Assembly: GCA_964016885.1 (NCBI GenBank)
Contig: OZ024748.1
Coordinates: 2,480,001-2,544,000, forward strand
Length of the DNA stretch: 64,000 bases
Reading direction: 5' to 3'
Source: Eledone cirrhosa
Taxonomy: Eukaryota
The notes beneath the pieces were generated by a model that saw only the letters and a program-made list of their open reading frames with translations, did not search any database and was not told the origin of the DNA. This document shows, one piece after another, positions 9,301-12,300 of the stretch. The stretch's first letter is position 1. Every line of letters starts with the position of its first letter. The translations under genes and the position numbers were made by a program.

Positions 9301-12300
9301 TATATATATATACACACACACACACATATATTTATGTGTGTATATATATATATATACACATTTATATATGTGTGCATATATATATGCGTGTGTTTATATA
9401 TATATGTGTATATGCTCTCCCACATCAAAGCAAAACTAACAATTGTTTTGTGGTTTGATTTACACAGGTAAACCTTGAATTACCTGTAATTCCCAGTTTC
9501 CATTTTCAGGAATTACAACCTACAAGAGAACAGATGGCATCAATACATCGAGAAACATTGAGAAACAATAAAAGGAAAGAAGAGTGAGATAAGAAAATAA
9601 TGAAGAACAGAAGTTCAACAAACACCGGGTGTTTCAAAAATTATTGAGACAAAGCGCGGATGGATTTGAAATTTGTAGAAATAAGTTGGATACTCGAAAG
9701 TAAGGAACAGCTATTGAAATAGCTGCTGTGAATGACAACAGCACGCAAGTTGGGTGAACATATCCCCAAAACAGAAACCAATCAACATAAAGATAAAAAG
9801 GTTTGAAAGGTTTTTCAACTCCCTCCTTCACCAAATGAATAAATAAACTATTAGATGTAAAGTTGATATTTTCTTCCATTTGCACACACTAGAATGTGTG
9901 TTGGAGGTTGGGGTGTTGTGTTCATAATCATCATGCTTAACCCTTTAACATTTACATTACTCTATATTTACTATCGTATTTTCACAGTAAAGCCTTTACC
10001 CCACATAATATTGAATCTATGAGATTTTCATATCGTTCATTTTGAGAACAATACCTTAACATCAGTGTGAGCAACTGGTTACAACCGGTTTGAACAGAAA
10101 GAGGCGAGGGAATTCTGACCGGATACAGCCAGTTTAAATGATAAAAGGTTAACATTTATTTTGCATGTTTACCTGTGTGAGACAGGCTGTCATGTTGTTC
10201 TGAAGCTACATCAGTCATGCGAGACTGACTGGCTCTCATGTTTTGCTTTGGCATGGTTTCCATGGTTAGACATCCCCTTCCTATAGACACTAACTTTAAG
10301 ATATGTGAATATATGTGTGTGTGTGTATATGTATGGTCCTGTAACTCCTAAGGGACTCGTAGGGGCGTGGTGTTGACACACAGCATTTCTAGGGCATTTT
10401 AAAACCTGGTGGAGTCCATCTCCTCTCCAGGTTTGAATACAGCAGATTTCATCCAGAGAAGGATAGAGTGTGAGAGAATGGAAGTGAGAAAACGATATAG
10501 AAGAAGAATTGACCCCCAGTGCTAGACTGGTACTTTTTATCAAGCTCAAATGGATAAAAGGCAAAGTTGGCCACAGTGGGATTTGAACTCAGAGAGCAGA
10601 GAGTTGAAACGAATATGGCAAAGCATTCTATCTGATGTTCTAATGACTCTACCAATTCATTGCCTGTGTGTCTATGTATATACGTAAATATATATATATA
10701 TATATATATATATATATATACGTTATTCCGGGTTGAATCGGAGGTAACCACAGTAAGTAAGGTACTCAATACATTGCAGAGTATAAAAGTTTTAATATAG
10801 ATGAGATTCTACAAGACTAGAACTGTTTCATTCTTTAGAAATCATCAGATTCCTGATGATTTCTAAAGAATGAAACAGTTCTAGTCCTGTAGAATCTCAT
10901 CTATATTAAAACTATATATATATATATATATATATAAACACACATGTGAAAAAGGTTCAATTAAATTTGTATTTTATGCATTAATACCTGTAATCAGTGA
11001 TTGTCTAATGGATATTTGTTCTGTTGACTTTAACACTTAATGTCCTGTACCACATGAAATAACATTAGCAAAAGAGTCTTGAAAAGTACAAAACGGCACT
11101 ATGACTGCATCACATTAAAAACTAAGGTCTTTACTCTAATACTGATAATTATTTTCACAATGATCTGTGCATGAGTGAAGATACCATAGCCATATGAATT
11201 AACAAACCCATTTGTAAAAATATTTTCTGCTATGTCAATCCAGTTTATTTAGAGTTAAGAAAGGAGAAAAATGACTCAGCAATTACTTGGTAATAATAAT
11301 AATAACACAACAGTCTACAGAAATACAAGCTAACAAAAAGACAGAGAAGTTCCTTTCTGAAGAAAGAGTGACACAATTTCATCATCGTCATCATTAAATG
11401 TCCATTTTCCAAGCTAGCATGGGTAAGACGTGCTGTTCTGTTGTGAGAGATCCAGGTCAGAGGCCCGTGTTTTGCTTACACAGAACTGATTTGGACTTGG
11501 TTTCTATGGTTGGATGCCCTTCCTAACCCAACCACATTTACAGTGTGTGCTGGGTGCTTTTTGTCATGACACAATATGATCCCATAAAATCAGAATTGTA
11601 TACTCTTTTACTATACCAAAGGCAAAAATATATGAGTAGATAGATGAGTACAAAGAAAATAGCTTTTTATTGAAACCATCCATACGAGCAAACTTTGTAT
11701 AGAGAAATTAATATAACAAACTGTCAAGACTTTATAAGAGACAAATATAATAGCAAAGACATTAACATGTTTAATAACTGCTAACTACACTACACTTGAT
11801 TTGTACAAAAATTGTCTGTACCTTTATCACTGAAAGACCACAGTAAAGTTAACAATGTGAGGGGCTGGGGACTAGTACATAAATCTGGAGTCTGCTGAGC
11901 CATGGAAAGGCTTGCAATATCTTTTATAGTTTGATAAATACATTTATACAACCAAGCTATACAATTTAATAACAACTTATATAATTTGATAGATAAGTAA
12001 CCTATACAATTTGATAAAAAACCTTACAAGAGGATAGAAATCCTTCACAGGATAGGACATCCCTTCATCTTATTTATAAGCTGCAATCGTGAAACAGTAA
12101 CCATGTATGTCCCAACATAAAGTCCCTTTAGTTGCAACAAACAGTTGGCATGCTTCATTTACACTTACCGTACAGATAAGGACTGCATTTTCAGCAGGGT
12201 TGTATGACATACTGAAGACAACACTTCGAGAACCTCTGAAATACATGAAAAAAAATACCAAGTGAAAAAAGAATGGAAAAAGTATCATCAAAACAGTTGA

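Follow-up and report, generated by a model that had tools for sequence, protein, structure and literature searches.

Penelope-like retrotransposons of the Hydra clade are recognised by RWK and DKT motifs, a CxCx5C linker, the absence of a CCHH motif, CxxC and CxH motifs, and insertion into (TA)n; many of their published hammerhead ribozymes have a U.U pair, and in several stem III is ACAG/CUGU (PMC8557442). No biochemistry of the clade was found in the literature searched. An element of another clade, Poseidon of Anolis carolinensis (PAc), has been followed in vitro: two internal start sites of reverse transcription bound its tail, both target strands are extended, a dimer is predicted, and the hammerhead is protein-assisted, its cleavage being dispensable for insertion (PMC11167929). 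An axolotl ribozyme with a U.U pair shows weak cleavage on its own and improved cleavage in dimeric form (PMC7229834), and tandem hammerhead repeats have been argued from trees, in a preprint, to derive from Penelope terminal repeats (10.64898/2026.07.22.740005). Here, five loci with hammerhead motifs are described in a stretch of 64,000 nucleotides from Eledone cirrhosa (positions 2,480,001 to 2,544,000 of contig OZ024748.1, assembly GCA_964016885.1; hereafter the window), together with their putative parent element and a satellite built of the same hammerhead.

Parent element and probable clade placement

The five loci are very probably insertions into (TA)n of 3' ends, truncated on the 5' side, that come from an autonomous Penelope-like retrotransposon bearing Hydra-clade motifs. 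Evidence comes from walking upstream from copies of the young subfamily, A2, where 5' truncations nest continuously up to a full open reading frame (ORF) at 95-100% identity. In one copy, L304 (G000:C1:133,254,900-133,263,500), an uninterrupted 714-aa ORF precedes a microsatellite-rich 3' untranslated region (UTR), after which come the hammerhead and then the tail; a truncated copy lies inverted on the 5' side. The ORF of L304 occupies 3479-5620, and its 3' UTR, which extends to 8173, contains well over 1 kb of TA/TG microsatellite and an inserted short interspersed nuclear element (SINE). An initial annotation of the window had proposed a ~120-nt non-autonomous element with a link to Penelope-like elements. 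The link holds, the 10.8-kb window arms matching the 3' end of an intact copy whose ORF joins a reverse transcriptase (RT) to a GIY-YIG endonuclease; the short element does not, its copies being nested 5' truncations of ORF-bearing elements.

The terminal repeat is also found on the other side of the coding region. At 34 genomic sites the tail continues into the 5' UTR, and 14 of the 20 read-through sites that were fetched reach the start codon (MLTK) 60-61 nt from the start of the search pattern. L393 preserves all of a 3.5-kb repeat-ORF-repeat unit, its frame being broken. Partial tandems of the pseudo-long-terminal-repeat (pseudo-LTR) kind, with hammerhead, are thus present in the form of these 34 junctions and L393. 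When 30 loci were chosen for a related endonuclease, 11 had an arm of the older subfamily type, A1, in the position of the element, where ~0.05 per locus would be expected from background density; five of these arms lie downstream in sense and seven are inverted at the 5' side, one locus having both.

The L304 protein carries RWR at 38, DKT at 116, YRDD, and CNCLNKEAC, of the CxCx5C form, at 567, followed by a C-terminal endonuclease with YIG, CDLC (CxxC) at 667 and CMH (CxH) at 695; reading the translation by eye revealed no CCHH pair between the two GIY-YIG strands. DKT, the linker, CxxC, CxH and (TA)n insertion are therefore as in the Hydra clade, with RWK replaced by RWR, a conservative change. 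Atlas look-alikes of the ORF, with scores of 0.95-0.99, include clusters with GIY-YIG and RVT_1, and the ORF is a candidate source of active protein. Several points weigh against this identification. Pfam and PDB sequence searches of the 714-aa ORF gave no significant match, and assignment to Hydra rests on motifs and on a by-eye comparison of the N-terminal and RT motifs. At 3.5 kb (L393) to ~4.7 kb (L304), with a tail of ~70 nt, the element exceeds the published <3 kb and 30-40 bp, although the size tendency (generally under 3 kb) is not diagnostic and is exceeded via the microsatellite-rich 3' UTR. Only one uninterrupted full ORF was seen.

Two other candidates were set aside. An ORF fragment in L072, considered as the parent and as a Neptune element, belongs to another family, which has its own hammerhead-like motif and tail and in whose loci identity to the L304 ORF is 29-53%. 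About 30 long A1 copies that seemed to share one 5' end suggested a non-autonomous element of ~520 bp; it was rejected, as the boundary follows an internal microsatellite of the parent's 3' UTR.

Thirty genomic relatives share one order, from the hammerhead to an internal end after CTATATTAAA and then to a tail of ~70 nt, which stops at (TA)n or (CA)n; the element has two fixed 3' ends ~70 nt apart. Very high copy number, as annotated, was borne out: a systematic sample of 80 evenly placed 10-kb stretches of the 3.0-Gb genome contained 13 loci, giving ~49,000 genome-wide (95% confidence interval 26,000-83,000), that is, tens of thousands. A 27-mer common to the subfamilies has 27,663 exact genome matches, against 0 for its reversed control, far more than chance would give, and a 28-mer specific to A2 has 3,609 (2,774 forward, 835 reverse). 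The density in the window, five loci in 64 kb, is above the genome average. Contigs of three other organisms also contain the hammerhead with its tail, some at >=99% identity, and the family is therefore not limited to one species. No earlier description of it was found in the literature, with most subscription journals, Repbase and Dfam outside the scope of the search. Judged by sequence, this is a new young family of a known clade, and the window copies are its truncated ends rather than new biology.

Inverted pairs and insertion

Many copies abut a second, inverted copy, and the two arms differ at their 3' ends. Exactly one arm is tailed in 87 of 102 abutting inverted pairs among all fetched loci, and the same holds for 42 of the 49 pairs that were not picked on junction or read-through. 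Among those 42, the tailless arm is longer at the 5' side in 12, the tailed arm in 6, and the two lie within 10 nt of each other in 24. Tailless arms end at +49 to +67 from nucleotide C3 of the hammerhead core, inside a TA-like stretch. At the other extremity, the systematic sample has 19 arms, of which 14 begin within 8 nt of C3 on either side; copies resemble a ~120-nt element because the hammerhead's 5' edge is often where synthesis or joining stops. In the commonest young junction the tail is on the native side in 97 matches and on the flipped side in 78. The arms of one insertion are also close kin, with 11 private variants common to both arms in 20 pairs (0.55 per pair, against 0.066 between pairs) and agreement at the loop site in 19 of 20, against 45%.

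These data fit, as we infer, a scheme in which both nicked strands prime cDNAs at different sites on RNA of a single lineage. The enzyme of the element would nick both strands of a (TA)n tract, and target-primed reverse transcription would start from two sites of the RNA, the tail end for one cDNA and the internal site for its partner. The two cDNAs, templated by one RNA lineage, would often go no further than the hammerhead's 5' edge, and would be joined by microhomology. The scheme agrees with the in vitro behaviour of PAc (PMC11167929). Some observations count against this scheme: the sample of 102 pairs is biased by the way loci were fetched, and both the sharing of variants between arms and the polarity of the spacer could also be explained by conversion or flipping after insertion. 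Post-insertion conversion could in any case add to the similarity of the arms. In one locus, L072:1901-2128 (minus strand), an inverted A1 arm is joined at a short common stretch to an endonuclease fragment of the other family, a single case that suggests a template switch between the RNAs of two families.

For the joining step alone, a rather unlikely competitor is snap-back, in which one cDNA folds and copies itself, and later conversion or flipping blurs the polarity. Such self-priming has been proposed for palindromic junctions (PMC3846280), and would agree with the private variants held in common by the arms and with the location of the commonest young junction at a native 3-bp mini-palindrome. 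A copy made in this way cannot, however, exceed its template, yet the tailless arm is the longer at the 5' side in 12 of 42 pairs, and these include pairs with little or no overlap (L279, L037, L013). A hairpin master, similarly, would yield a single polarity, whereas both are seen (97 and 78).

Much less probable is an origin of the short copies from a separate non-autonomous master, SINE- or retrozyme-like and ~130-520 nt long, that borrows the Hydra enzyme. The clustering of 5' ends at the hammerhead edge (the 14 of 19 arms above), a start ~390 nt upstream shared by ~30 older copies, and a DNA-read depth of hammerhead plus tail that is at least 100-fold above that of the ORF would all be expected of such a master. 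Against it, young copies nest without a break up to the full ORF, the fixed 5' end of the older copies follows an internal microsatellite with the end of the endonuclease lying upstream (L321, L326, L341), and both junctions and tail polarity differ between copies. Nor do the window copies have the tandem units and lack of a coding parent of non-LTR retrozymes, being inverted or single arms of an ORF-bearing parent. That the 186-bp palindrome at 10.8 kb moves as a unit, as a DNA element resembling a miniature inverted-repeat transposable element with the hammerhead as passenger, is scarcely credible: at least 40 palindromes that are 99% alike and have an identical junction do lie in TA, but terminal inverted repeats and fixed ends are wanting, since the tail is at one end only, the tailless end varies by ~20 nt, both polarities occur, and an RT-encoding element has this sequence as its terminal repeat.

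Hammerheads and window copies

The window motifs are type I hammerheads, identified as such by the core boxes CUGANGA and GAAA with a UH site, three helices and an open helix I; self-cleavage is predicted. Much of what the initial annotation had reported was recovered in place: four plus-strand CUGAUGA cores, each followed by stem II, GAAA, ACAG/CUGU and a GUH triplet; the U.U pair at 10.1/11.1 and CUAG in loop III; five loop II sequences (UAAA, UUUC, UACC, CUCC, and CUUC in the 28.1-kb copy); (TA)n flanks at the window copies; and cuts after 10891 and 27464, as predicted sites. Other statements needed revision. The U.U pair, described as unusual, is common among published Hydra-clade hammerheads. 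Two further cores on the minus strand make the 10.8- and 18.4-kb loci head-to-head inverted pairs (Table 1), and the polarity given for the unit is backwards for the tailed arm, the ~70 nt at the left of 10728 being its minus-strand 3' tail. The 28.1-kb copy is indeed truncated; its strand is minus, and it is an arm of the tailed type. A complete hammerhead, as annotated for the element, exists in the 10.8-kb plus arm only, and is lacking at 18.4 kb, where stem I has only 3-4 bp, and at 27.4 kb, where the pair closing the stem II loop is A.G. Every pair is canonical in the native A2 context and in the 10.8-kb plus arm. The 10.8-kb locus belongs to A2 and the other four to the older subfamilies (A1).

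Table 1. Hammerhead-bearing insertions of the window and their flanks, numbered from the first nucleotide of the window (C3, core nucleotide)
Feature	Positions	Strand	Remarks
(TA)n target, left flank of 10.8-kb insertion	10688..10719	.	
Tailed arm, young subfamily A2	10720..10848	-	C3 10848; 129/130 nt identical to 3' end of ORF-bearing L304; 5' strand of stem I absent; ~70-nt tail at 10787 to 10720
Head-to-head junction	10846..10855	.	Native CAG/CTG mini-palindrome, 4-nt spacer 10849-10852; both tail sides occur genome-wide
Tailless inverted arm, complete type I hammerhead (self-cleavage predicted)	10846..10913	+	C3 10853; 68/68 nt identical to L304, L273, L393; stem I AGAUUC/GAAUCU; internal end site adjoins (TA)n
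(TA)n target, right flank of 10.8-kb insertion	10913..10937	.	
Tailed arm, older subfamily A1	18302..18436	-	Core 18428
Tailless inverted arm	18437..18505	+	Core (C3) 18441; stem I cut short by the junction
Tailless arm in (TA)n	27411..27481	+	Core (C3) 27426; 11-nt inverted stub ahead; stem II closing pair broken; 92.5% identity to ORF-linked arms of L342 and L348
Lone tailed A1 arm	28068..28197	-	5' truncation inside CUGAUGA box
Longer remnant, tailless, then (TA)n	57165..57392	+	Core (C3) 57332, GUU triplet; ~165 nt of 3' UTR plus hammerhead, 82-91% identity to those of ORF-linked copies L326, L341, L348

Copies are 75-100% alike, and alignment of 49 of them showed a well-formed structure in native context, with pairing in 88% of helix cells, against 32-55% in slid controls. 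An Rfam scan of the window at E<=1 returned zero hammerhead families, and an excised 66-nt piece gave a partial Hammerhead_3 match only (18.9 bits, cut-off 48.5). Covariation in stem I, another annotated feature, stands to the extent that both sides have changed at two outer pairs in 13 of the 49 copies (G-C to A-U and U.G to A-U); it reflects a single split between A1 and A2, and not many events. Stems II and III show essentially no compensatory change, and pairs with a double change number 4, against 3.9 after shuffling, with changes limited to outer stem I.

The core had also been called invariant, and this does not hold. Among 75 A1 copies chosen without regard to the hammerhead, the full 11-position core is kept in 41, and mismatch to the commonest letter of the column is 5.8% in the core against 7.3% in its neighbours (p=0.17); mismatch in loop II reaches 34%, owing to subfamily sites and CpG decay. 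The core thus mutates as fast as its neighbours among copies, an outcome that the initial annotation had listed against its own proposal, and one to be expected of dead insertions. On this reading of the alignments the insertions are decaying neutrally, and the contrast between loop and core is confined to the source lineage.

Folding predictions are consistent with ribozymes that are inert in short insertions. At 10.8 kb a hairpin of ~60 bp is favoured by 66 kcal/mol over the hammerhead, such that the ribozyme of the plus arm is predicted to be blocked in place, and at 27.4 kb a fold with the inverted stub is favoured by 15 kcal/mol. The ribozyme likely serves the full-length transcript only, where cleavage, ~137 nt ahead of the start codon, would be weak and probably assisted by protein or by dimer formation. 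Two results are unfavourable to an active ribozyme: the isolated hammerhead fold is less stable than the predicted minimum by 3-5 kcal/mol, also in its native context, and arms starting at +39, the predicted cleavage site, form no peak among the fetched loci.

A second hammerhead-like family of the same build occurs in the window at 41734-42005 and 18547-18686, and was matched in 7 of the 80 systematic stretches. At the former position a tailless inverted arm (41734-41830) and a plus-strand tailed arm, with its core at 41846, a long stem II and a 3-bp stem III, lie between (TA)n and (CA)n. Elsewhere in the genome, an older Penelope-like family (L131-L160, e.g. L138, L140 and L148) has the CxCx5C linker and (TA)n ends, with its own tail and its own hammerhead-like motif with a long stem II. 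Other repeats of the window include a sequence at ~10510-10620, beside the 10.8-kb insertion, which we take to be SINE-like from its presumed likeness to octopus SINEs; a ~550-bp interspersed repeat in three copies that are 91-95% alike (20266-20899, 28582-29135, 34731-35273); and, at 38342-38882, an inverted repeat of 240 bp, its halves 98% complementary and separated by 61 nt, that adjoins a long AC/AT microsatellite.

The C28 satellite and comparison with known systems

On contig C28 the young (A2) hammerhead alone forms a 78-bp satellite with at least 1,763 exact junctions. A satellite-junction pattern matched 1,765 times forward and 0 times reverse; among the 100 matches listed, 98 are on C28 (from 30,497,111) and 2 on C1. 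The joint, stepping back 77-78 nt, was also found in DNA reads, in three raw-read runs of other samples and one contig set, and is therefore not an assembly artefact. No RNA run appeared among the sequencing runs listed, which speaks neither for nor against transcription. The left edge has the structure of a normal insertion, with (TA)n, an inverted tailed arm at 30,496,554-30,496,702, and then direct 78-bp units, each starting a little upstream of stem I and stopping at the internal end. The array spans 30,496,554 to at least 30,800,300 (L403-L415). Probes of 300 bases fell inside it at 30.6, 30.7 and 30.8 Mb, and outside it at five positions from 30.9 to 31.3 Mb, four of which (30.9-31.0 and 31.3 Mb) contain other tandem repeats. 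A 3-kb stretch contains 38.8 units; if continuous between probes, the array would be ~300 kb long and hold 3,900-5,200 units. A second array of ~7.4 mixed 78-bp units, without (TA)n flanks, was found at C1:350,200,250-350,200,840 (L401). The junction was not among the matches listed in the hammerhead-bearing contigs of the three other organisms, which cannot show absence, and the literature, within the scope given above, contained no description of a 78-bp hammerhead satellite.

How the array grew is indicated in part by its variants. Junction variants recur at a distance of 9,211 bp (26 pairs among the 98 listed junctions), and amplification at the DNA level is therefore indicated. One insertion likely seeded the satellite, through a repeated template jump or slippage, with DNA-level amplification enlarging it afterwards. 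That the array is instead an active minimal retrozyme is unlikely; its transcripts would then cut themselves to monomers or circles of 78 nt, and rolling-circle reverse transcription would have built it. Each unit does span the hammerhead in full, stem I included, the complete core is kept in 58 of 73 sampled units, two natural units folded as a double hammerhead are predicted at -12.7 kcal/mol against -9.6 for two single ones, and the C1 array provides a second instance. Variation among units and its recurrence at 9,211 bp are nevertheless typical of amplification as DNA; the core is no better kept than its neighbours (mismatch 2.1% against 2.8%, p=0.32), the best predicted fold of the dimer (-21.7) is not a hammerhead, and the C1 units are mixed rather than copies of one circle.

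Seeding by an insertion, followed by enlargement as DNA, can be taken further only tentatively. A young Hydra-type insertion may have turned its own hammerhead into a satellite of ~4,000-5,000 units, while its founding junction, like the parent, persists in the genome; if transcribed and self-cutting as a double hammerhead, the array would be a retrozyme at birth, and together with the one-tail rule it would show how two-site priming by a Penelope enzyme leads to inverted pairs, tandems and ribozyme satellites.

Several consequences follow for the field. Being young, and having both an intact ORF and near-identical insertions by the thousand, the family offers in vivo statistics for the unresolved late steps of Penelope integration, and it supplies a defined RNA and protein for in vitro work on the Hydra clade. 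The C28 satellite, with its founding insertion, provides direct structural evidence for the proposed origin of tandem hammerhead repeats in Penelope terminal repeats, and permits live retrozymes to be tested against plain satellites. If the array does cut itself, it would be a retrozyme more than 10 times longer than any array surveyed in 10.64898/2026.07.22.740005.

Among described systems, the Hydra clade, which includes Hydra-1_Obim of Octopus bimaculoides (PMC8557442), resembles the present family in having a single ORF where RT is joined by GIY-YIG at the C terminus, in DKT, CxCx5C, CxxC plus CxH, the lack of CCHH and insertion into (TA)n, in a hammerhead near the 3' end that often has U.U at 10.1/11.1 and an ACAG/CUGU stem III, and in inverted 5'-truncated copies with a tail at one end. 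The present family differs in RWR for RWK, in a hammerhead unlike that of Hydra-1_Obim, in a CUAG-bearing loop III of 8 nt (27 Hydra-clade rows of File S2 of that work have 0-3 nt), and in its tail of ~70 nt, its 3' UTR filled with microsatellite (3.5-4.7 kb elements) and its tens of thousands of end fragments. PAc (PMC11167929) is alike in two genomic 3' ends that bound the tail, in AT-rich targets, and in a hammerhead within the repeat just ahead of the coding region; the present element belongs to another clade, has both ends upstream of the start codon and the hammerhead outside the ORF, and has a tail about twice as long. The minimal type I hammerheads of metazoan Penelope-like elements (PMC4209133) share the type I terminal-repeat topology, the predominance of single truncated copies, opposite-strand pairs, a palindromic loop III and low predicted activity as monomers, but the hammerhead described here has a full 4-bp helix III, an 8-nt loop, a 3-bp helix II, and U.U in place of G10.1-C11.1.

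Compared with retrozymes, the dispersed copies of the window are neither tandem nor non-autonomous. The C28 array, by contrast, resembles non-LTR retrozymes and hammerhead satellites (PMC7229834; 10.64898/2026.07.22.740005) in its tandem type I units, shares with axolotl HHR_Amex2 (PMC7229834) a U.U pair at the helix II base, and agrees with the derivation from a Penelope terminal repeat proposed in 10.64898/2026.07.22.740005. Its unit is 78 bp, against the 150-450 bp typical of retrozymes and the 51-972 bp of that preprint; its units number thousands, against a maximum of 300 there; and it consists almost entirely of ribozyme, with the parent element and the founding insertion still visible.

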